A DNA stretch of 64,000 nt from Calditrichia bacterium (GCA_050633245.1 JBOEGD010000009.1:96001-160000), one strand, 5' to 3'; shown: positions 2,452-14,610, counted from the stretch's first letter. Notes: generated by a model from the letters alone, not told the origin. A program made the numbers and translations.

Positions 2452-3585
2452 CTACAACCTCCCCACCGGCGGCCGCTCTCTGGCCCCATCATCAGCCCGC
2501 AGCGCCTTGATAACCCGCTCCACCTGCGCCTCAAAGATCCTCTCATCCTTCTCCCACCCTCTGAAATCTGCCGCCAACCTCGAGCGCACCTGCGTCTTCT
2601 TTGCACTCTGCCACCCGTCTCCCAAGTAACCATCCAAGTCCAGTGGAATCAGTGAGAGCACCTTCTTCTTGCGCTCTCTAAACAGTTTCTGCTCCTTATT
2701 AAAGGCCGTCTCGATCTCATTGTCCACCCACCAGCTGGTCAGCGACTGCTCAGTGCAGCAAAGAAGAACCTTGTCCCAGCCCCGGATACCTCGATCGACC
2801 TGCTCAAAGATATCATCCCCTGGCAGCATCTGCTTCTCATCCAGCCAGCAGCGGATGCCTTTATCCTGGAGAGTGTTGTGCAGCCGGCGGGCGAAGTCTT
2901 TATTAGCATGGCTGTAGCTGATGAAGCATGAGTAGAATTGGATGGGGTAATCGTTGAGAATGTGATCAATCTTGTAGAGAATATCGGTGACTAGGTTTCT
3001 AGTGAGGTTTTTTTGATATAGCTTTGTTGCTTCAATTTCCCAATCCGAAAGGCCGCAGCCTCTAAGGAATTCTAGTGGAAGTGGACCACTGCGAGAAAGT
3101 GTTCTAAGGTCCAATGTGCACGGTCCAGTAAATTTACAGTGCTCAAGGTTTAAAGCCTTGCTAAGGTCAATGTCGCTAAATACTGTTTCATCTAGATTTG
3201 CATCACGCATATCTACAAAATCTAAGACTGTTTTAGAGAAAATCACACTCTCAAGGTTAGCATAAGTGAGATTTGATTGACTTAAATCAGCTGACTCGAA
3301 GTTAGCACCGGAAAACTTTGCTCCACTAAGGTTTGCATTTATACATTTTATAATCCTAAGATTAGCATCAACAAGAAAGGCCTGACTTAGATCAGCTCCA
3401 ATGAGGATTGCTCGAGGTATATCGGCTTGAATTAAATCTGCCCTGGAAAGGTTCGCCCCTTCAAGATTAACCCCGGTGAATTCAATTCTCCTCAAATCCG
3501 GCTTGACAATTGGTTCTTGAGATCGCCACTTATTCCAAACCTCAACACCCTGCTTCAGAATGTCCACGTGTTTTGGATTCGCCAT
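2452..3585 (-). CDS. Pentapeptide-repeat + TIR domain protein (copy 1)
   Basis: A(N/D)LxxA pentapeptide repeats, then [10 protein letters not shown]...GIRCWLDE...SWWVDNEIE; the TIR catalytic Glu position is occupied. Confidence 0.92.
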
Positions 3586-3743
3586 ACGCTGTTCCTTAGG
3601 GGAGTAATGTGATTGGATATCCTAATTATGAGGCGGGCTGGACTAAATGCAAATTATTTTTCGAAAGAAATTCATAATATTTCGATTTACCTATAATTGT
3701 CAGGTAAAGAGGAAAACATATAAATGACCGCCAAAAGAGCTTT

Positions 3744-4433: not shown

Positions 4434-4531
4434 AATCAGACCCTAGCGACGCTAACCGCCTCAATTCCCCTTGCATATTTCCTCACTCCTTCGTTTTTTA
4501 TATCACTCCCCCTCACTAAACCGGAATAGCT

Positions 4532-5602
4532 ATGTCCGAGAAGAAACCACCCAGCGAGACAGATCAGCTCCGAGAAGAACTTGAGGTGCAACAGGCTGAA
4601 CTCAAGAAGCTCAAAGAGCAACTCCAAGATCAGAAGAAGCAGCTGATCCAACAAGATCATCGTCCGCTTACTGTGCTTAAGAATTTAGTGGTTTCCCACA
4701 TGAATGAAGGTGCAAAGGACACTCGAGAGGCTTCCATAATGGCCGCCGGTAGTTTAGTTTATCGAAAACTTGCACAGCGAACGCGAGTAATTATTGGCGC
4801 AGGCCTAGTTGGAACTCTCATCGGCTTGGGTACTTTGTATGTCACCTGGTCAACACTTACCGAGCTGAAATCCCAGAATCAAGAGTTTATTAAGCAAAAT
4901 GAGTTGGTCACAAGCCAGAATAAGCTGTTTCAGCAGCAGATGGTCGATCAACAACGCTCAACCAATGCGCAGTTGCTTTCGGATATTCTTGCTGAAATTG
5001 AGGATGCAGAACGTGAGGTGAAAAAGACTATAAGGAATTTAGATGGGTATTGGAAACCTAGTCGCCAGCTCTTGTATCGAATTCACACTTCCGCGAGAGC
5101 CTTTGAAACAAATCATCAAGGTTCATATAATTATGAACGCGGTCAGCTATTGCAGGCGCTGGTAGATGCTAGAGTAAGATTTCCCCTTAGACCTAATCCA
5201 CTCTTTCGTAACGCAGATTTAAGGTTGGCTGATCTGAGAAATGCTAGCCTCTCATCCGTAGATCTACCTTATGCAAATCTACAGAAGTCACGACTTGATA
5301 ATACTGATCTAAGTCATTCAATGCTATCAGGGAGCGACTTAAGAATTGTTAATTTCTCTGGAGCAAATTTAATGCACGCTAACCTGTCAGGAGCTGATCT
5401 TGGAGAGGCTTATTTCTATGCTACAGATTTGCGAAACGTTCGTGGTCTTAAAGTTGAACAATTATCTAGAGCTGCAACACTTTATTTGGCACAGATTAGT
5501 GATACAATGTTATTGAATCCATTAAGAAAGTACTGGCCCAATTTGTTTTTGCACCCAGATTCCGTTACAGATTTTTCTCCTTGGTGGAAGAAACCTCAAT
5601 AA
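4532..5602 (+). CDS. Coiled-coil/TM pentapeptide-repeat protein
   Basis: N-terminal coiled coil, one TM, C-terminal ADLR.ADLR.ASL pentapeptide repeats. Confidence 0.85.
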   Translation: MSEKKPPSETDQLREELEVQQAELKKLKEQLQDQKKQLIQQDHRPLTVLKNLVVSHMNEGAKDTREASIMAAGSLVYRKLAQRTRVIIGAGLVGTLIGLGTLYVTWSTLTELKSQNQEFIKQNELVTSQNKLFQQQMVDQQRSTNAQLLSDILAEIEDAEREVKKTIRNLDGYWKPSRQLLYRIHTSARAFETNHQGSYNYERGQLLQALVDARVRFPLRPNPLFRNADLRLADLRNASLSSVDLPYANLQKSRLDNTDLSHSMLSGSDLRIVNFSGANLMHANLSGADLGEAYFYATDLRNVRGLKVEQLSRAATLYLAQISDTMLLNPLRKYWPNLFLHPDSVTDFSPWWKKPQ

Positions 5603-5945: not shown

Positions 5946-6052
5946 CAAGAAGGGCTGGAAGGTTTTATTGTGACAATTAGTTTTAGAAAGGGGTATGCTT
6001 ACTACGACATTGATTATCGAAATGAGCATACCAACCAGCTTAAGAACCCAGG

Positions 6053-8182
6053 CTATGTATATTGCTCAAATGGCCCCATACTGTTCAAGAAGTCATCAAA
6101 GTTACTCTCCAGTTGAGAATCAGATTTTCTAATCACAGCTTTATCTGTAATAATCAGGTCGATTAAATCTGGTTTAGATAAATATGTATTCTCTAGTTTA
6201 TCCTGATAAAATTCTGGCAATTGAGTTAAGCTTGGGTAATTCTTGTATGACTCACCAACAACAACGACAAATACCTCACTTCCATTTTCCTGCGCAAAGT
6301 TCTTCAAGGATCGCAACCTGCTAGCATCTCTTGGTGGATGAAATACCCAACGGTCATTGTCAAAACCTTCTGCACCTATAACAACCATAATTTTAGTATT
6401 CGTTAGTACATTCTTGTTATCTGGAAAAGCATCTTTTAGATCAGGTAGAGAGTAGTCTTCTTTTAATTCAAACATCATTAAACGCGCTTCAAATGATTCC
6501 TGGTCGTCTGACTTCATGACAAACAGCTTAGGGGGTATTCTCTTGTTAATTGATTCTGCGTCTTTAAAGACCACGGTCTTAAGCATTTCTAACACTGTTT
6601 TGCTATATCCATGAGTAACCAAAACTTTATCGTTTTTATCTTCCTGCTTCTCAATAGAGCTCAGCCAGGAAGAATACTCTTGAGAGAATTTCTCGACAAT
6701 CCTCTTTCTATTTATATTTATAACCACATTGGTGCTACCGTAAAGCTCTGAAAGAAGCGTTAGCTCATTTGTAGCTCGTTCTTTGTTTATGTCAAATATA
6801 TTGGGAATAGAATTGTCCTGAATCCTTTCCAATAAGGTTCTTGTAGTCCTTAGCTTCGTATTATCTGTTTCAGTTGCACAGAGCCTGAGCGCAGCGACAT
6901 GTAAATCAAAGCCGATGTAGGCTTTTTGTTTATGAAATAGGTAGCGTAGTTGCTCAGAGACTATTGCAAAGACATTATACTTCTCTTGTTCCACCCTTTC
7001 AGTCATTGCTTGATTTGCAACAAACGAAATGGCTCGAACATAGTTAATTAATGAGCTTGAAGCCGACGCATTCGGAATAAAGTCTAATATATAGTTATTA
7101 AGATCCGAATATTTTAAAACCTGCAGCTGGAAAGAGGTTCTGCTTCGAATTTTCTCATGGTCTCTATTGTTTTTGCGAAGAAGCTTTACTATGCTCTCTT
7201 CAAATATTTCCTCTCCGTAGTCACCACGAATTCCATGCAGAAGTATTCTCCAGTTTTCAATATATTTCTCCATACGATTCTTATACATATCTGGACTAAA
7301 CTGAATAATATGATCGCAAAATCTACGAATTGGGATTCCACATTCATCTGCAGCAAAACATTTCATAATCTTCAAACGCTGAATGGAGCTATGACTTTTA
7401 CGGGAAAGCTTGTCCAGCTTTTCCACCGCTGCCAAAATTAGTTTTCGCTCTTCGACTAAAAATTGCAAAAGCTCTGTCCTGGATTTTGCTTTCAGCAATT
7501 TCTGATTAGCAACATTTTGTAAGAAAAGTGTATTTCTGTCTTCCAGAAACGAATTGCCAAGTTTCCATATCTCGTAACTTATTATTTCAAGAATCTCTGA
7601 CTTAGCCCACCCCCTGATTGTTGTCTTGGCATATTCTTCAGGAGAGACTCTCCCAAGAAGGCGCAAGGTGCAAAATGTAGCACCGAGCAAAATTGAAAAA
7701 AGTAAAGATACGGCTATTAGAGCGCTCGCAAATAAACTTGAGTCCAGCGCATTTAACAAAAAGCTATAGAGTGGAATAAACGCTATGATGATAGTGGCTG
7801 CTGCAATAAATGTGATGGTATTACCCAGAGCCAAAGCTCGGATCATTTGCTGAGATCGGATTTTTAATATCCAGGATAAACTTGGGCGAAAATATTCTGA
7901 AGGCATTGCTATTCTTTGCTGAGAACTCGGTCGATTTTTAAATCGATTCCAAGCTGCTTCAATATCTGTATCCGGATCATTGTTCACAGGATTGGTAATT
8001 GCACCAAACAAAATCTCCCCCGACATTTGTTCCTCATAAGCGCATATCAATTCCGCCTTATATTCAGGATACTTTGCTAAATAGTCCTTAATATCGGGAT
8101 TATCTCCGTTGAGTTTTCTAACTGCAATACCATCCAAAACTTCAGTAATCAAGTTTTCAACTTCTAATTTACTATCACTCAT
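6053..8182 (-). CDS. 2-TM protein with C-terminal eIF2B/IF-2B-like (sugar-phosphate isomerase fold) domain; putative partner of adjacent ECF sigma
   Basis: Motifs VLVTHGYSKTV, MVVIGAE, VVVVGESYK and PDLIDLIITD appear in the order of eIF2B alpha/beta/delta-family motifs. Two TM helices at ~aa 120-175. ATGA overlap with sigma gene. Confidence 0.75.
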   Translation of the reverse strand: MSDSKLEVENLITEVLDGIAVRKLNGDNPDIKDYLAKYPEYKAELICAYEEQMSGEILFGAITNPVNNDPDTDIEAAWNRFKNRPSSQQRIAMPSEYFRPSLSWILKIRSQQMIRALALGNTITFIAAATIIIAFIPLYSFLLNALDSSLFASALIAVSLLFSILLGATFCTLRLLGRVSPEEYAKTTIRGWAKSEILEIISYEIWKLGNSFLEDRNTLFLQNVANQKLLKAKSRTELLQFLVEERKLILAAVEKLDKLSRKSHSSIQRLKIMKCFAADECGIPIRRFCDHIIQFSPDMYKNRMEKYIENWRILLHGIRGDYGEEIFEESIVKLLRKNNRDHEKIRSRTSFQLQVLKYSDLNNYILDFIPNASASSSLINYVRAISFVANQAMTERVEQEKYNVFAIVSEQLRYLFHKQKAYIGFDLHVAALRLCATETDNTKLRTTRTLLERIQDNSIPNIFDINKERATNELTLLSELYGSTNVVININRKRIVEKFSQEYSSWLSSIEKQEDKNDKVLVTHGYSKTVLEMLKTVVFKDAESINKRIPPKLFVMKSDDQESFEARLMMFELKEDYSLPDLKDAFPDNKNVLTNTKIMVVIGAEGFDNDRWVFHPPRDASRLRSLKNFAQENGSEVFVVVVGESYKNYPSLTQLPEFYQDKLENTYLSKPDLIDLIITDKAVIRKSDSQLESNFDDFLNSMGPFEQYT

Positions 8183-9126
8183 GTCAACTCCCTATTGAAA
8201 GATAGGTTCGTTAATGATGCAAGTTCGCTGACGATTAATTGCCTACTTTGCGAGGCGGCAATTTTGTTGCCGGCTATTTCTCTATATGTCCTTTTACTCT
8301 GAAAACGTTGCTGAATTAGTTTCGCCTTTCTTGGGCTTGTTCTTGCGAGAATCTTCGCCAAAATCATTTTGTCCTGTTCATCGAACCACTTAAACCTATA
8401 TCCTTCTTCAACGATTATTGAATGCAGATACGGGCCTAGTTTTTCCCCTAATGGGTGGTGGGCAATAAACTCTTTTATAGATGGGGGTTTGCCAGCCTGC
8501 TTCCTTTCACAAAAACTATCAAGGGTATCGGTTATAATGAAATCACCGATTTTCTTAAGACATCTTGCATTTCGCTTGCGTAATCTAACTGCTCCATTCA
8601 AGTCACCTATCTTTTTTGCAATCTCATTGTAGGGTAAACCATGTAAAAATCGTAGCTCAATAAGCTCTGAATCCTCGGGTGAAACAACCCTTGTTATATA
8701 ATCCCAGGCTTCATTCTCAATGAGTTTGATATCTATTGATTTTTCAAACCCTCCAATGTCTTCAATAAGTGGTATTTTCGTGAGTGAGTTCTTCATCTTG
8801 GGATATATTGATGAGAACGGCTTCGGTAAGCGATTATTGAGGTTAAAGTAATCTACACATTTGTTGCGGGCGATCTTGAACAACCATCTTTCAAATGACG
8901 CCCTTATTTGATCTTCTGTATCTTTTTGGTGCGGAGTAAAGGTTGCTATGTTAATAAAGGCCGCAATAAGCACATCCTGGGAAACATCTTCAACTATAGC
9001 TATTGGAATACCCAGATATCTTACAAAGTTGTTTAACCTCTTATAATAATGTTTAAAGAGAATCTCTTTGCTCTTTACATTGCCTCTTCGACAGCCTTCC
9101 AATATTGAGCTAAAGCCTAGTCCCAT
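8179..9126 (-). CDS. ECF sigma-70 factor with long C-terminal extension
   Basis: sigma2 (EDVSQDV; FERWLFKIARNKCVD) and sigma4 (LIELRFLHGLPYNEIAK). ~120-aa extension includes a second sigma4-like segment (LIQQRFQSKRTYREIA). Confidence 0.88.
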   Translation of the reverse strand: MGLGFSSILEGCRRGNVKSKEILFKHYYKRLNNFVRYLGIPIAIVEDVSQDVLIAAFINIATFTPHQKDTEDQIRASFERWLFKIARNKCVDYFNLNNRLPKPFSSIYPKMKNSLTKIPLIEDIGGFEKSIDIKLIENEAWDYITRVVSPEDSELIELRFLHGLPYNEIAKKIGDLNGAVRLRKRNARCLKKIGDFIITDTLDSFCERKQAGKPPSIKEFIAHHPLGEKLGPYLHSIIVEEGYRFKWFDEQDKMILAKILARTSPRKAKLIQQRFQSKRTYREIAGNKIAASQSRQLIVSELASLTNLSFNRELT

Positions 9127-9270
9127 AGGAACCTCCTGTTAAACCCCAAACTGAAAAAGCGTCCTCCAAACTCCCTGTTTAAAGAATACCTGTTACCTCT
9201 AGATTTATATTATTTCATCCTGATCTATAATTGTGCGTGATGAAAGAGTTGATTACCCTAATTTTGGTTA

Positions 9271-9380
9271 CTAACTGAAAAGAGGTCAGAAACGTGACAT
9301 ACTTTTGAAAAAAAGTGAGAAAAAATATCTCATCATGATCTCCCATTCTTCTGTCACATTCTTCTCCCCTTTAGGGTTTA
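9271..9380. promoter_or_regulatory. Back-to-back ECF-type promoters TGTCAC-N18-GTT
   Basis: Minus strand: TGTCAC (9299-9294)-N18-GTTAG, towards the sigma gene. Plus strand: TGTCAC (9352-9357)-N18-GTTTA, towards 9412. Confidence 0.5.
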
Positions 9381-9411
9381 TACAGTAAATAGCCCAATAA
9401 AGGAGATCTAT

Positions 9412-9693
9412 ATGTTAGCTGATCCAAATTTTCAAAGTATTCTGGCTGGCGCATTAATGGGAGGGTTTTGTGTGTTCGCAACAGTATTCGCTCGACTCAT
9501 TGTAAAGATCCTGGTCGGTGCTCTTATCGTGACTCTGTCTTTTGTAGGCTACAGCCAGGGAGTTGTAGGTCTAGAGAAGCTATTTAGTTCAATAGTGGCC
9601 AGCCTGTTGTATCACATTTATTTTTCTGGCGGGTTTGGATTTACACTGTTTGCACTCATTGCTCTTGGCTTTACTAACAAGTCAGATCCGTAA
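9412..9693 (+). CDS. Small 3-TM membrane protein
   Basis: AAGGAG RBS; hydrophobic 93 aa. Confidence 0.7.
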   Translation: MLADPNFQSILAGALMGGFCVFATVFARLIVKILVGALIVTLSFVGYSQGVVGLEKLFSSIVASLLYHIYFSGGFGFTLFALIALGFTNKSDP

Positions 9694-9728
9694 CCATATC
9701 CCATAATCAGAATAAAGAGATTTCACTC

Positions 9729-9752
9729 AAAGGCTCGCTTTTACGAGCCTTT
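9729..9752. terminator. Bidirectional intrinsic terminator
   Basis: AAAGGCTCG-CTTTTA-CGAGCCTTT. Confidence 0.6.
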
Positions 9753-10080
9753 AACATATTCAATCGATAAGCGTGAAACTCATTTAATAAAGTATTCTCC
9801 TGGATGTCTGATTCAAAAATCAGAATGGATGCAATCATTGTTGTAACGAAAAGTTAATACAAGAAGAGGGGGAACGTTCTATTTCTGAAGCTCACTTCCT
9901 GCATTATTGGGGAGTAATTAATAATAGTTCTGCAGCTCATAGATGTCAACCCTTTTCCCTCCACACATACTTTTTTGGTTTGAATTCGAGTTATCGGAAC
10001 ATTTTTTGACTCTCTTGAAATTCTTCAGTAAACTTGTCTAAGAATCTCCCTAGGCCCTATACCTCAACTTGGTAGGTTTT

Positions 10081-10626: not shown

Positions 10627-11880
10627 TCACAACCTCCCCACCGGCGGCTTCTCCCGCGCCCCATCATCTGCCCGCAGCGCCTTGATGACTTGCTCCACTT
10701 GGGCCTCAAAGATTGAGTCATCGTTCTCCCAACCTCTAAAGTCTGCTGCCAGCCTCGATCGAACCTGCGTCTTCTTGGCGCTCTGCCAACCATTGCCCAG
10801 GTAGCCATCCAAATCCAGCGGAATAAGCGAGAGCACCTTCCTTTGGCGTTCCCGCATCAGCTTCTGCTCCTTATTGAAGGCCGTCTCAATCTCGTTGTCT
10901 ACCCACCAGCTGGTTAGCGACTGCTCAGTGCAGCAAAGCAAAACTTTGTCCCAGCCCCTGATACCACGATCGACCTGTTCAAAGATATCATCACCGGGCA
11001 GCATCTGCTTTTCATCCAACCAGCATCGAATGCCTTTGTCCTGGAGAGTGTCATGCAGCCGGCGGGCAAATTTCTTATTAGCGTGGCTATAGCTGATGAA
11101 GCAGGAGTAATACTGGACTGGGTTGGCGATACGTATTTGAGCAATCTTATAGGTAATATCTATCAACTGTCCATCAGACAAGTCTTTTTGGTAGAGCTTG
11201 GTAGCCTCTATTTCCCAATCAGAAAGGCCACATCCTTTGAGGAACTTCTCTGGTAGAACGCCACTTCTTGAGAATGTGCTGGTGTCCAACATGCTTGGCC
11301 CTTTATGTATACATGTTTCAAGGTTTTTGGTGTTTGAGAGGGCTATATTTAGAAGTTTTGTCTCATTCAAGATAGACTCATAGAGCGACGCGTTGCTTAA
11401 TTTAGAATAATGCAGGTTAGCCCAACTGAGGTCGGCCATACTGAGGTTGGCACTTTCAAGATTGATCCCTTTAAGATTGGCGCCACTAAGGCTGGCGTTT
11501 TTTAGATTAGCACTGCTGAAGTCAGCATCTTCGATGTTAGCCCAACCAAGGCTGGCGCCTTCAAGGTTTGCTAAAGAGAGATTAGCCTCGTCAAGATCGG
11601 CTGCGTGGAGACTGGCTTTTTCGAGGTTGGTTTTAACAAGGTTGCTCTCTACAAGTATGGTTTCCGTGAGCTTTGCTTTTTTTAGGTTACTCATACTAAG
11701 GTCGGCCCAGAGGAGGTTCGCTTCACTGAGATTGACGTCTTCGAAATTAACCTCTATCAGCTTGAACCTTGTGAGGTCAGCCTCTATAAGATCCGGCCTC
11801 ACATCTGGATTTTCCTCCCGCCACTTATTCCAAACCTCAACACCCTGCTTCAGAATGTCCAAATGCTCTGGATTCGCCAT
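10627..11880 (-). CDS. Pentapeptide-repeat + TIR domain protein (copy 2)
   Basis: Same architecture as 2452..3585; TIR nearly identical, more repeats. Confidence 0.92.
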
Positions 11881-11974
11881 ACGCTGTTCCTTGGGGGAGT
11901 AATGTGATTGGATATCCTAATTATGGAGGCAGGGAGACCAAATGCAAATTATTTTTCGAAAGAATTAAGTTTAC

Positions 11975-12387: not shown

Positions 12388-14610
12388 GTGAATATGTGCA
12401 AACACACCTATACCAGCGATAGTGGAAAAGAGTCTCATTCCATGGGCAACCAATGCCCCCATCCAGAATATTACAAAAAAGGTCATGCAACCGCCATAAG
12501 CGAATCAGTAGATGGTCTGGTACCTGTTCTTCCAATAGATAGTAATGGGGTCTGCCTCTTCCATAGTAAGGATGTCATCTGGAAACGCAAGAACGGTTTC
12601 AAGCAAATTTTTCTTCAACTTGTGCAGTTCCTCAATAATGACAGCATCTTAAAATGTTGTGATTTTCGAGAGTTTGTATTTGTCGGCGATGAGCTTACAA
12701 TCAAAAATAATATCGAAGACTATGTACTCCAAATTACGAATACAGTATTCCAGAAACCGGTGTACTTCACGGGCGCATCCTTTATCGATTCATTCGAGCT
12801 TAACGATGTCAGTTTCCAGGATGGTGCCACGTTTCGCAGTACAACCTTCACCCAAGACCTGCAAATAATAAATACTCGCTTCTTTGGGCTCGAGTTTAGC
12901 AACACGACGTTTATGCAGATCGCCTACTTCATTAAGGTAGAGTTCCTGAGCTACGCTCTATTCATAAACAATCGGTTTACCGGAAAGACAGGCGTGTATA
13001 CGGTCAAGTTCGTGGACTCGTGTTTTCGGGGAATAACCGACTTCTCTGGCTCAGCCTTCACTTTGGGAGGTGAATCGACAGTTGGCTTTATAAAAGTTCA
13101 GTTTGAAGATTTCACGGATTTTGGGCGTACCCAGTTCCACTGCCAGGTCATCTTCAACGAAGTATCCTTCGCATTTAACACTGAGTTCATTGATACTTCG
13201 TTCGAAACGGTTAGCTCCTCAGCGCGTTACCGCGGAGCTGCTGTCGAGTTCAAACAAATCGAAGTTATGAAGAATGTAATCCTCACTTTCAAAAGTACGG
13301 ATCCCCAGAAAAGGCTGTTCTCCCATAATGTTCAATTTAGCTTTAAAGAAAAGCTGGATGGGATTATTCGGTTTGAGAACGTTAACTTCAGCCACATCGA
13401 TTCGGCTTCTAAGGATCGGTTAGTGCGGCTTGCAAAGTCAGGGAATGTCGAGATTGGGACAGGGTGCATAAAGTATCGTTTTCAAACCGACATTCGAACG
13501 GTCGCTGTGAGTCATGACAATGCTCCACTTGTTTTGGAGCTCTGCCAGACATTCACCAACTACTTCACGGTGAGCAACGGCCTCAATTTGGGCTTTGAAA
13601 TCGTTGCGCGTGACGAAGCGAAAGTAAGCTTTTTCTACTTTACTGACGAAAACATTTCAGAAGCCACCTTTCACGCACGCCTGGCGCATACGGAACAAAG
13701 TTTGTGGAATCTGCTTAGATATCGTTCCGATGAGCAGCTCAAAGCCTTGGAAGCAGCGTCAGCAACGGCAAAGCCCTCTATCCGGGAAAACGCGATCATT
13801 AACGCAGTCGACGGTATCTCGGCACTTCTCGGCACATTCTTCCGTGTAGGAATGAGAATCGCCTTGGGAACCTGGAAAGAGGCTGACACAAAAGCACTCT
13901 TGGGTGCCGTTCAATTTAATAGCGATGGTGCCGAGAACCGCGCACTGAGCTTGCATCGAGTCTTCACAGAAAATTACACCGCAACTACGCTCTTAGATAT
14001 CAACCGTCAGCAAAACCGGCTATTGTCCCCAATGGTTATGGATAGTCGCTACATGGACACTCCCAAGAAGGTCAAAATTCTTTTTTTGGGTGCCAATTCC
14101 TCGAGTTCACCACTGGGCCTTGACTTAGAAGTCAAGCAGCTACAAACCAACCTGAAGCTTGCCAAGGAGCGCGACACCTTAGAGTTTAGCCAAGAGTGGG
14201 CTATAACTGTCGATTCGTTAATGCAGGCGATGCTTGATGAATCACCGACGATCGTTCATTTCTCGGGCCATGGCAACGAATCGGGTATTATTCTTCAGGA
14301 TGGAATGGGCGAACCCAAGGTCGTGTCGACAGACGCCTTATCTAACATGTTCAAACTCTTTAAGGATAGACTTCAATGCGTTGTACTGAACTCATGTTAC
14401 TCAAAGCCTCAGGCACAGGCGATCCGGATGCATATCCCACATGTCATCGGCATGAGTTCAAGTATTCCTGATCCGGCGGCAATTGCATTTTCCACGGGAT
14501 TCTACAAGGCTGTAGGGGCGGGAAAGGATATCCCATTTGCGTTTGATCTGGGAAAAGCGGCCATTCAATTGGAAGGTATTTCCGGTGAAAACATCCCTGT
14601 CTTACTATAA
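12388..14610 (+). CDS. Pentapeptide(F-type)-repeat protein with C-terminal CHAT (caspase-like) domain
   Basis: CxFH motif and F..A.F repeats; C-terminal KILFLGAN, VHFSGHG, VVLNSCYS (His/Cys dyad intact). Confidence 0.85.
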   Translation: MNMCKHTYTSDSGKESHSMGNQCPHPEYYKKGHATAISESVDGLVPVLPIDSNGVCLFHSKDVIWKRKNGFKQIFLQLVQFLNNDSILKCCDFREFVFVGDELTIKNNIEDYVLQITNTVFQKPVYFTGASFIDSFELNDVSFQDGATFRSTTFTQDLQIINTRFFGLEFSNTTFMQIAYFIKVEFLSYALFINNRFTGKTGVYTVKFVDSCFRGITDFSGSAFTLGGESTVGFIKVQFEDFTDFGRTQFHCQVIFNEVSFAFNTEFIDTSFETVSSSARYRGAAVEFKQIEVMKNVILTFKSTDPQKRLFSHNVQFSFKEKLDGIIRFENVNFSHIDSASKDRLVRLAKSGNVEIGTGCIKYRFQTDIRTVAVSHDNAPLVLELCQTFTNYFTVSNGLNLGFEIVARDEAKVSFFYFTDENISEATFHARLAHTEQSLWNLLRYRSDEQLKALEAASATAKPSIRENAIINAVDGISALLGTFFRVGMRIALGTWKEADTKALLGAVQFNSDGAENRALSLHRVFTENYTATTLLDINRQQNRLLSPMVMDSRYMDTPKKVKILFLGANSSSSPLGLDLEVKQLQTNLKLAKERDTLEFSQEWAITVDSLMQAMLDESPTIVHFSGHGNESGIILQDGMGEPKVVSTDALSNMFKLFKDRLQCVVLNSCYSKPQAQAIRMHIPHVIGMSSSIPDPAAIAFSTGFYKAVGAGKDIPFAFDLGKAAIQLEGISGENIPVLL

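Follow-up and report, generated by a model that had tools for sequence, protein, structure and literature searches.

An overlapping gene pair in a Calditrichia bacterium (GCA_050633245.1, JBOEGD010000009.1:96001-160000; this whole stretch of 64,000 nucleotides [nt] is called the window, and positions are counted from its first letter) joins an extracytoplasmic function (ECF) sigma factor, P0002, to a membrane protein of 709 amino acids (aa), P0001, whose C-terminal half is a remote relative of the IF-2B fold with the pocket residues of eIF2B alpha. The explanation we favor, which in our judgment stands about evenly between right and wrong, is that P0001 acts as a membrane-tethered, cytoplasm-facing anti-sigma factor in which a non-catalytic, eIF2B-alpha-like domain senses a sugar 5-phosphate or a nucleotide-like metabolite. 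A preliminary description of the same DNA had already proposed a sugar-phosphate-sensing anti-sigma factor or effector here; the fold and the pocket have since stood up to analysis, and binding of the sigma factor is plausible, with weak backing from complex prediction. The gene pair comprises the following features.

6053..8182, (-) strand: membrane protein P0001, 709 aa, its start overlapping the sigma stop by ATGA
7883..8182, (-) strand: N-terminal extension of P0001 on the cytoplasmic side, aa 1-100, a candidate for sigma binding (predicted helices)
7652..7843, (-) strand: P0001 two-helix membrane hairpin, aa 114-177 (hydropathy; AlphaFold2 [AF2])
7163..7651, (-) strand: P0001 helical domain, aa 178-340, with the conserved motif IPxRRxCDHxxQFSP (AF2)
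6068..7162, (-) strand: non-catalytic domain of P0001 with two lobes, IF-2B-like (eIF2B-alpha-like), aa about 341-705 (Foldseek; profile; Atlas)
8179..9126, (-) strand: ECF-type sigma factor gene P0002, 315 aa (TIGR02937; Pfam Sigma70_r2, Sigma70_r4, Sigma70_ECF)
8842..9060, (-) strand: sigma region 2, P0002 aa 23-95 (Pfam Sigma70_r2, E = 1.2e-8)
8551..8682, (-) strand: sigma region 4, P0002 aa 149-192 (Pfam Sigma70_r4 at aa 149-187, E = 3.1e-7)
8182..8541, (-) strand: P0002 C-terminal extension, aa 196-315 (29-aa motif, then a second region-4-like helix-turn-helix)

The overlap of the two genes, stated in the preliminary description, can be read directly: the junction runs GAG TTG ACA TGA / ATG AGT GAT, and the TGA of the sigma gene lies within the ATG of P0001. 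A strong Shine-Dalgarno sequence, AGGAGG, precedes the ATG of P0002. The G+C content of the module is 0.37 to 0.40 (window 6001-10000) versus 0.44 to 0.48 in the genes for pentapeptide-repeat proteins with a TIR (Toll/interleukin-1 receptor) domain that flank it.

The ECF identity given to P0002 earlier proved correct. The NCBIfam model TIGR02937 matches aa 22-192 with 67.9 bits against a cut-off of 42.9 (E = 7.9e-19), and the protein shows the regions 2 and 4 and the ECF model matches expected of an ECF (group 4) sigma-70 factor, while none of the specific sigma subgroups of NCBIfam reaches its own cut-off. The nearest solved chains are likewise ECF sigma factors (6dxo, 4.1e-6; Escherichia coli sigma-E 1or7, 3.4e-4), with R. 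sphaeroides RpoE also among the closest. A word-based homologue search with P0002 returned only the query. Beyond region 4 lies a C-terminal extension of 120 aa, in which aa 201-285 resemble the protein's own aa 90-170 (27% identity, E = 2.5e-4); the extension thus looks like an internal duplication of the linker and region 4. The structural rows found for the Atlas model of the extension are all sigma region 4, at TM scores of about 0.5 that serve as a lead only, and a Pfam scan of the extension alone gave nothing. A motif of 29 aa is common to the sigma factor (aa 197-225) and P0001 (aa 11-39), at 41% identity, with an E value of 1e-6 when the two fragments are compared and 9e-5 for whole P0001 versus whole P0002. 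A recent duplication does not account for the shared motif, since the DNA of the P0002 extension shows no similarity to that of the P0001 5' end. A comparable pattern, in which a hydrophobic helix is followed by DP or NP and then by a basic residue plus an aromatic residue or Leu, is visible in the N-termini of both P0001 relatives from the same bacterial family.

P0001 has the two transmembrane segments originally assigned to it. Hydropathy places them at aa 114-147 and 148-177 and the AF2 model has helices at 102-145 and 150-178, so that the outer loop of the hairpin is very short (8 residues). Basic residues stand before the hairpin (K107, R109, R115) and after it (R173, R177), and the loop at 142-149 has none; both ends of P0001 are therefore probably cytoplasmic. 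The AF2 model of the whole protein, built with the family alignment described below, has a predicted local distance difference test (pLDDT) score of 84.3 and a predicted TM score (pTM) of 0.82, and it is poor only at aa 1-100.

The C-terminal half, which the preliminary description had assigned to the eIF2B/IF-2B fold on the strength of short ordered motifs, bears out that assignment in structure. Foldseek comparison of the P0001 model with the PDB gave 122 matches at E ≤ 0.001, and the best 50 of the 122 (E from 1.2e-7, TM scores by target of 0.46 to 0.61, 338 to 394 columns) are solely chains of eIF2B alpha, beta, or delta or of ribose-1,5-bisphosphate isomerase. Structural neighbors in the Atlas spanning aa 339-709 are IF-2B clusters, two of them being fusions of IF-2B with NUDIX. 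The models thus indicate a complete two-lobed IF-2B fold at aa about 341-705, with the helix bundle and the Rossmann-like domain that characterize the superfamily. Sequence profiles agree: searched against the PDB sequences, the profile of the family alignment places eIF2B alpha first (E = 4.5e-4), and its best 15 matches (E = 4.5e-4 to 2.1e-3) consist entirely of eIF2B alpha and beta. Three of the motifs noticed at the outset are exactly those that the profile aligns, above chance, with eIF2B alpha: THGYSKTV (P0001 523-530) pairs with THAYSRVV, GAE (603-605) with GAE, and VVAExYK, which contains ESYK (644-647), with VVAESFK.

This alignment allows the ligand pocket to be compared residue by residue. 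In human eIF2B alpha, according to PMC8187479, the sugar of fructose 6-phosphate is held by G196, A129, Y130, E198, and N208 and its phosphate by R132 and K234, the sugar when bound has its 1' side exposed to solvent, and the substitutions E198K and N208Y abolish binding. For the ribose-1,5-bisphosphate isomerase of P. horikoshii, PMC5789824 names Cys135 and Asp204 as catalytic, Ser137 and Lys240 as ligands of the 5-phosphate, Asn214 and Lys215 as ligands of the sugar, and Arg22, Arg65, Gln166, and Lys215 as ligands of the 1-phosphate; it also gives the position of the catalytic Cys as Ala in human and Gly in Schizosaccharomyces pombe eIF2B alpha. The residues reported in these two sources were mapped onto P0001 through the alignment of the profile with the PDB sequences, and conservation was counted in the 63 aligned family members. 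The equivalence of Asp204 and E605 was also deduced from the coordinates of the 5yfs stretch.

eIF2B alpha A129 / isomerase Cys135: P0001 G525; Gly in 58/63, Cys in 0
eIF2B alpha Y130: P0001 Y526; 55/63, plus 8 Phe
eIF2B alpha S131 / isomerase Ser137: P0001 S527; 63/63
eIF2B alpha R132: P0001 K528; 40 Lys and 13 Arg of 63
eIF2B alpha G196: P0001 G603; 62/63
eIF2B alpha E198 / isomerase Asp204: P0001 E605; Glu in 62/63, 1 Asp
eIF2B alpha N208 / isomerase Asn214: P0001 H615; 53/63
isomerase Lys215: P0001 P616; Pro, Thr, or Ala, with no basic residue in the tally
eIF2B alpha K234 / isomerase Lys240: P0001 K647; 62/63

These columns are among the most conserved of the family, alongside S373 (62/63) and G424 (63/63) of the helical lobe, and the family keeps the pocket pattern THxxS[KR], GA[DE], xSxK. 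The replacement of the catalytic Cys by Gly argues for a sensor, not an enzyme, and the pocket pattern, judged by its residues, is that of a ligand sensor of the eIF2B alpha kind. Because the pocket keeps the residues that contact the sugar and its 5-phosphate, the most likely ligand is either a sugar 5-phosphate itself or a compound that bears one, such as a nucleoside monophosphate or an ADP-ribose-like compound. The eIF2B alpha subunit itself binds AMP and GMP (PMC4787765).

It took an exhaustive search to bring the family of P0001 to light. With the single sequence, Pfam gave no family at E ≤ 1, NCBIfam gave IF-2B alpha only at E = 0.037 (13.3 bits against a cut-off of 339), and a word-based homologue search found the query as its sole match; phmmer of aa 461-709 alone against the PDB yielded nothing significant, with archaeal aIF2B (1vb5) at E = 0.29. 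An exhaustive phmmer search of 1.84 billion representatives (50% clustering) found 173 proteins at E ≤ 1e-3, 120 at E ≤ 1e-10, and 38 at E ≤ 1e-30, most of them 550 to 850 aa long and matched over P0001 residues about 100-690. The family alignment contains 63 near-full-length members, picked by eye for coverage from 150 listed among the 173, and exactly two hydrophobic segments precede the conserved cytoplasmic part in 54 of the 63. The helical domain between the hairpin and the IF-2B-like part has conserved positions (P297 in 58/63, S296 in 52/63, C289 in 49/63). When aa 176-345 were modeled alone with the family alignment, AF2 returned a helical bundle at high confidence (pLDDT 95.5, pTM 0.88), for which Foldseek found no PDB match at E ≤ 0.001, the best being 0.28. 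The family is unnamed and merits a family model.

The P0001 gene occurs in 3 of the 86 genomes searched from the phylum of the window and in 3 of the 16 from its bacterial family, the window's own genome counted. The protein family extends across at least six lineages (Calditrichaceae, Calditrichota, Thermoanaerobaculia, Saprospiraceae, Latescibacteria, and Alphaproteobacteria), and 11 metagenome loci with P0001 relatives were also found; the search for related loci used a 12-row alignment of the family. Some of these loci are redundant: the proteins of L002 and L004 are identical, as are those of L003 and L005, and L013 repeats the sequence of L004, adding no independent case. Two overlapping open reading frames (ORFs) make up the homologue at three loci (L008 7827-9975, L009 7578-9696, and L013 5523-7752, the last otherwise identical to the intact L004), a split that might stem from a frameshift, faulty assembly, or decay. 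Toxin and protease genes were seen near individual members: a caspase of the "EACC1-associated type" (NF047832, 8.5e-21) after the member in Saprospiraceae (L007 9926-10618, [+] strand), an AbiEii nucleotidyltransferase toxin (5.8e-17; L005 8032-8697, [-] strand), and a MazF/PemK toxin (4.3e-16; L018 5137-5715, [-] strand).

The pairing with a sigma factor recurs in the relatives from the same bacterial family. An ECF-like sigma gene lies directly upstream in all three carrier genomes of one bacterial family, the Calditrichaceae; in the two relatives it encodes 193 to 197 aa, lies on the same strand, and is separated from the P0001 homologue by 34 and 8 nt. The sigma factor 8 nt upstream scores above the 42.9-bit cut-off of TIGR02937 (43.5 bits, E = 2.5e-11), and the two relatives' sigma factors are 33% identical to one another. 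The element GGCATTATATA is common to the regions before these two sigma genes (L004 about 7060-7085, L005 about 4515-4540), about 25 to 45 nt ahead of their start codons, and the window carries CACAATTATAGA at a comparable place; the two may possibly represent a shared promoter element.

The same clade differs from the rest of the family at the N-terminus of the membrane protein. P0001 has 116 residues ahead of its hairpin, and its relatives P0005 and P0006 have 133 and 142. Among the other 60 aligned members, three have 119 to 133 residues of unrelated or hydrophobic sequence and the rest have 2 to 103, most of them fewer than 80. In a FastTree phylogeny built on 604 columns of the family alignment and rooted at the midpoint, whose support values were not inspected, P0001, P0005, and P0006 form one clade nested among members with 2 to 27 pre-hairpin residues. 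The extension and the upstream sigma gene are thus joint derived traits of one clade, per the gene contexts that were read (that of P0005 not being among them). The layout is that of a class I anti-sigma factor (ASD-I), with a gene directly downstream of the sigma gene and four predicted N-terminal helices followed by the hairpin. When whole P0002 was modeled with P0001 aa 1-112 from a 3-row alignment, the complex scored 0.60, the best of three controls scored 0.16, the runs agreed in at least 52% of contacts, and the partner had a pLDDT of at least 63. Of 80 solved complexes, 58 attain the pass mark of this procedure, as do 2 of 110 mismatched pairs; among the passes, a score of 0.60 or lower occurs in only 7 of the 80 solved complexes and in both passing mismatches. 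The prediction gives weak backing to the binding of the sigma factor by the extension.

Under the anti-sigma explanation, the two-helix hairpin would anchor P0001 with its N-terminal extension and its large C-terminal part inside the cell, and the pocket between the lobes of the IF-2B-like domain would bind a sugar 5-phosphate or a molecule carrying one. The P0001 clade would have gained the cytoplasmic extension together with an ECF sigma gene directly upstream, and the extension would hold the co-translated sigma factor at the membrane in the manner of an anti-sigma factor. Ligand-driven closure or dimerization of the IF-2B-like domain might then alter this hold, whichever the direction of the switch, and the outcome would be the coupling of an internal metabolite to a small sigma regulon. 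Within the literature collection searched, and among the entries listed there, no work linking eIF2B or IF-2B with anti-sigma or ECF factors was found, in keeping with the initial impression that no such partnership had been described.

Several observations weigh against this explanation. The pair is limited to three kindred genomes, and the sigma factor 34 nt upstream of its relative stays below the 42.9-bit cut-off of TIGR02937 (33.3 bits, E = 3.4e-8). The window's sigma factor could not be aligned by BLASTP with those of the relatives (E = 0.83), which would fit repeated assembly of the pair or the replacement of one partner. No sigma gene was found by ORF scanning upstream of seven distant loci with readable upstream DNA (L006 to L009, L018, L021, and L023). 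Most members operate without a sigma factor, which argues that the core output of the family is something else. The helices predicted in the extension (4-24, 29-37, 39-58, and 74-82) have low confidence (pLDDT 39 to 65). Pfam found no family, and no known anti-sigma family, in P0001 aa 1-111 at E ≤ 0.1; a PDB sequence search with the extension gave nothing relevant; P0001 matches no known anti-sigma domain (zf-HC2, RskA, and the like), and aa 1-100 contain no HxxxCxxC motif. As for the complex prediction, a score of 0.60 lies in a band in which, without a high prior, wrong passes outnumber right ones, and likeness to the sigma/anti-sigma complexes already solved may raise the score. In the sensor domain, P0001 stays below the curated IF-2B sequence threshold and Pfam IF-2B (PF01008) is found weakly in only 1 of the 63 members (7.4e-4); by its sequence the protein is a remote IF-2B homologue and not a member by curated models. 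The replacement of N208 by His and of the isomerase's 1-phosphate ligand Lys215 by Pro616 indicates, moreover, that the ligand differs from those of both model proteins.

The main alternative is that P0001 is instead an autonomous membrane sensor or effector, as in the many family members without a sigma factor, acting through its hairpin or helical domain, for example by ligand-driven oligomerization, with the sigma factor merely driving or sharing its expression. We consider this rather unlikely, yet it is the competitor that deserves most attention. Beyond the missing sigma genes at the distant loci, it gains from the retention of the hairpin in 54 of 63 members, from the C-terminal fusions to PilZ, a cyclic di-GMP receptor domain, found above the Pfam cut-off in two members (P0020 aa 665-764 and P0070 aa 681-752), which point to a signaling protein with an output of its own, and from one weak match to PycTM (E = 0.0039) among the 63 members. 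It gains as well from the neighborhoods: among the listed families of 79 flanking ORFs at 14 loci, no neighbor recurs beyond secretion sorting or Ig-like domains, glycosyltransferases, MazF, and SLT. The families counted more than once were FlgD_ig (4), Por_Secre_tail (3), and CHU_C (2), which are type IX secretion sorting and Ig-like domains, and glycosyltransferases, MazF, and SLT (2 each). The clade-specific extension that coincides with the sigma gene, the ATGA translational coupling, and the complex prediction, weak pass though it is, count against an autonomous effector, as do the lack of any PADLOC match for P0001, P0002, or P0003 (a divergent ORF described below) and the absence of P0001 relatives among 41 pattern matches in viral contigs. 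It is scarcely credible, by comparison, that P0001 is an active, membrane-anchored sugar-phosphate isomerase of the MtnA or ribose-1,5-bisphosphate type. The fold is the same, and isomerase chain 3a11 is among the top Foldseek matches (1.9e-7); however, the Cys position is never Cys in the family, the Asp position is nearly always Glu, the equivalent of the 1-phosphate ligand Lys215 is Pro, Thr, or Ala, and the best sequence matches are non-catalytic eIF2B subunits. We rejected this candidate on the replacement of these catalytic and 1-phosphate residues.

The remaining alternative, raised in the preliminary description, is that the module is an arm of a TIR defense system in which the IF-2B-like pocket reads ADP-ribose-type products of the neighboring TIR NADases. 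As reported there, the module does lie between two TIR genes, which are listed here as context only.

2452..3585, (-) strand: pentapeptide-repeat and TIR_2 protein, 377 aa (Pfam TIR_2, 1.7e-23)
10627..11880, (-) strand: pentapeptide-repeat and TIR_2 protein, 417 aa (Pfam TIR_2, 1.7e-23)

These genes lie on either side of the module, about 2.5 and 1.5 kb away, with a CHAT protease gene after them, and their products match ThsB-like PADLOC models. The chemistry is possible, since ADP-ribose bears a ribose 5-phosphate group: pockets of this type bind ribose 5-phosphate-like groups, including the AMP and GMP of eIF2B alpha, the solvent-exposed 1' side of the sugar in that protein (PMC8187479) speaks for the reading, and fusion clusters of IF-2B with NUDIX exist. 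We nevertheless regard a role in TIR signaling as improbable, and its fullest version, in which ADP-ribose or a cyclic ADP-ribose isomer made by the TIR-pentapeptide proteins is read by the eIF2B-alpha-like pocket and releases the ECF sigma factor, as slightly less probable still. The two TIR proteins are 62% identical overall and nearly identical in the TIR part, and their genes lie in direct repeats (2452-3669 and 10627-11964) 8.2 kb apart, with DNA identity of 84% over 300 nt and 86% over 174 nt, and between the repeats sit the sigma module and another pentapeptide gene, the third (4532-5602); the flanking genes are therefore one duplicated gene and amount to a single association. Genome-wide, there are 18 matches to TIR_2, several of them clustered (four fall in a stretch of about 42 kb on one contig, C11), and 51 to sigma70-ECF, of which 36 are above the cut-off, so a chance neighbor is not unlikely; by rough arithmetic, about 0.5 to 0.7 sigma genes would by chance lie no farther than 3 kb from a TIR gene. 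Genes on the (+) strand intervene, and the TIR genes and the module are not one operon. Nor do the flanks of the related loci show a conserved TIR gene beside an effector gene, as in Thoeris-type systems. In 21 related loci, tblastn detected none of five kinds of protein from the window (TIR, CHAT, pentapeptide, sigma, and the 93-aa protein), and no TIR appeared in the first 25 of the 79 families listed for the flanking ORFs, where single hits could hide. In five relatives' genomes, TIR_2 matches lie on contigs other than that of the homologue; a possible exception is a match some 11 kb away from the homologue in Saprospiraceae, provided that C26 and the L007 contig are one and the same. The main text of a 2025 preprint surveying TIR systems (10.64898/2025.12.03.692087) mentions neither eIF2B nor IF-2B. 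The proposed reading of TIR products and the expected co-occurrence with TIR genes thus found no support in the flanks of related loci.

Two further genes were noted in the window. Adjoining the second TIR gene, positions 12388-14610 ([+] strand) encode the CHAT protein, of 740 aa, in which a pentapeptide stretch accompanies a CHAT protease domain at the C-terminus (Pfam, 6e-7; PADLOC "chat," 3.7e-12), and an ORF of 432 aa running off the window edge (3-1298, [-] strand) has a weak PIN_3 match (2.5e-4) below the cut-off.

Divergently from the sigma operon lies a small ORF that the preliminary description had placed in the regulon of the sigma factor.

9127..9411, no strand: divergent intergenic region of 285 bp between the sigma operon and P0003
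9412..9693, (+) strand: hydrophobic ORF P0003, 93 aa, divergent, with a good Shine-Dalgarno sequence, AAGGAG, 7 nt before its ATG

This part of the earlier proposal found no support. The family matches of P0003 are weak and below threshold at E ≤ 1 (Pfam ABC2_membrane_2, 0.041; NCBIfam, 0.02 and 0.099), no homologue was present among 90 candidates, a word-based search returned the query only, and the related loci have no counterpart; in each of the two same-family relatives, the divergent upstream gene is that of a lytic transglycosylase. It is still possible that P0003 is a genuine small protein of the membrane and a target of the sigma factor. No promoter of the form GGAAC-N15-18-CGT/GTC was found on either strand of the intergenic regions of the window and the two relatives, and sigma-70-like sites in 9127-9411 numbered 11 versus 13.6 in shuffles, with no excess. 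The half-sites GTGACA and TGTCAC were seen by eye at window positions of about 9301-9306 and 9358-9363, about 57 nt apart.

Several known systems offer points of comparison. With Pycsar PycTM, the 2TM-SAVED proteins of CBASS, and the transmembrane Thoeris effectors described in 10.64898/2025.12.03.692087, P0001 shares a short membrane anchor and a cytoplasmic small-molecule-binding domain. It differs in that no signal-making enzyme is conserved beside the family among the families listed and no PADLOC model matches, and the main text of the same preprint does not name the IF-2B fold among Thoeris or TIR sensor domains. If P0001 did read a TIR signal, TIR immunity would be wired to transcription through a sensor fold new to bacterial defense.

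Further parallels are the pairs RpoE-RseA of E. coli, RpoE-ChrR of R. sphaeroides, and DdvS-DdvA of Myxococcus, in which, as here, a sigma gene is followed by an overlapping gene for a membrane protein. P0002 resembles RpoE-type ECF factors, and P0001, like the partners in these pairs, begins with about 100 aa of predicted helical, probably cytoplasmic sequence. It has no recognizable anti-sigma domain family. ECF anti-sigma factors are mostly known to sense conditions outside the cell or the redox state; ChrR of R. sphaeroides senses in the cytoplasm, via a cupin domain. The anchor of P0001 is a hairpin with a minimal outer loop and not a single span with an outside sensor, so that sensing would be cytoplasmic. 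P0002 also departs from the compared ECF systems in its 120-aa C-terminal extension with a second region-4-like module. If the anti-sigma explanation is right, the module would be an ECF sigma switch whose sensor faces the cytoplasm through a metabolite pocket of the eIF2B alpha type. That an ECF pair can govern a defense island is illustrated by DdvS-DdvA in a Myxococcus CBASS-CRISPR island (PMC11506125).

In its sensor domain, P0001 is most like eIF2B alpha and archaeal aIF2B. These proteins share with it the two lobes (a helical bundle and a Rossmann-like domain), the loss of the catalytic Cys to Gly or Ala, and GAE in place of GAD, and P0001 keeps the eIF2B alpha contacts Y130, S131, R/K132, G196, E198, and K234; by this likeness, its action would be allosteric ligand sensing and not catalysis. 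Unlike eIF2B alpha, P0001 is bacterial and membrane anchored, has no eIF2 partner, carries His at the position of N208, is too remote for Pfam PF01008, and has before the fold an extra helical domain of 160 aa that lacks a structural match. Ribose-1,5-bisphosphate isomerase and MtnA share its fold, the position of its pocket, and the Ser and Lys of the 5-phosphate site, but in P0001 the catalytic Cys and Asp and the 1-phosphate Lys are replaced, and its closest matches are non-catalytic. If this is correct, non-catalytic, ligand-sensing descendants of sugar-phosphate isomerases would have arisen both in bacteria and in the lineage toward eIF2B, and with the module one could examine, in an uncomplicated bacterial setting, how the IF-2B fold converts the binding of a ligand into a regulatory output. 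Whatever its relation to the sigma factor, the unnamed family, with 173 representatives, brings together a membrane hairpin, an IF-2B-like domain, and a helical domain that lacks structural kin. Set beside the systems compared here, the module suggests a kind of ECF sigma/anti-sigma pair built on this unnamed protein family and, with it, an undescribed coupling of a metabolite to transcription.

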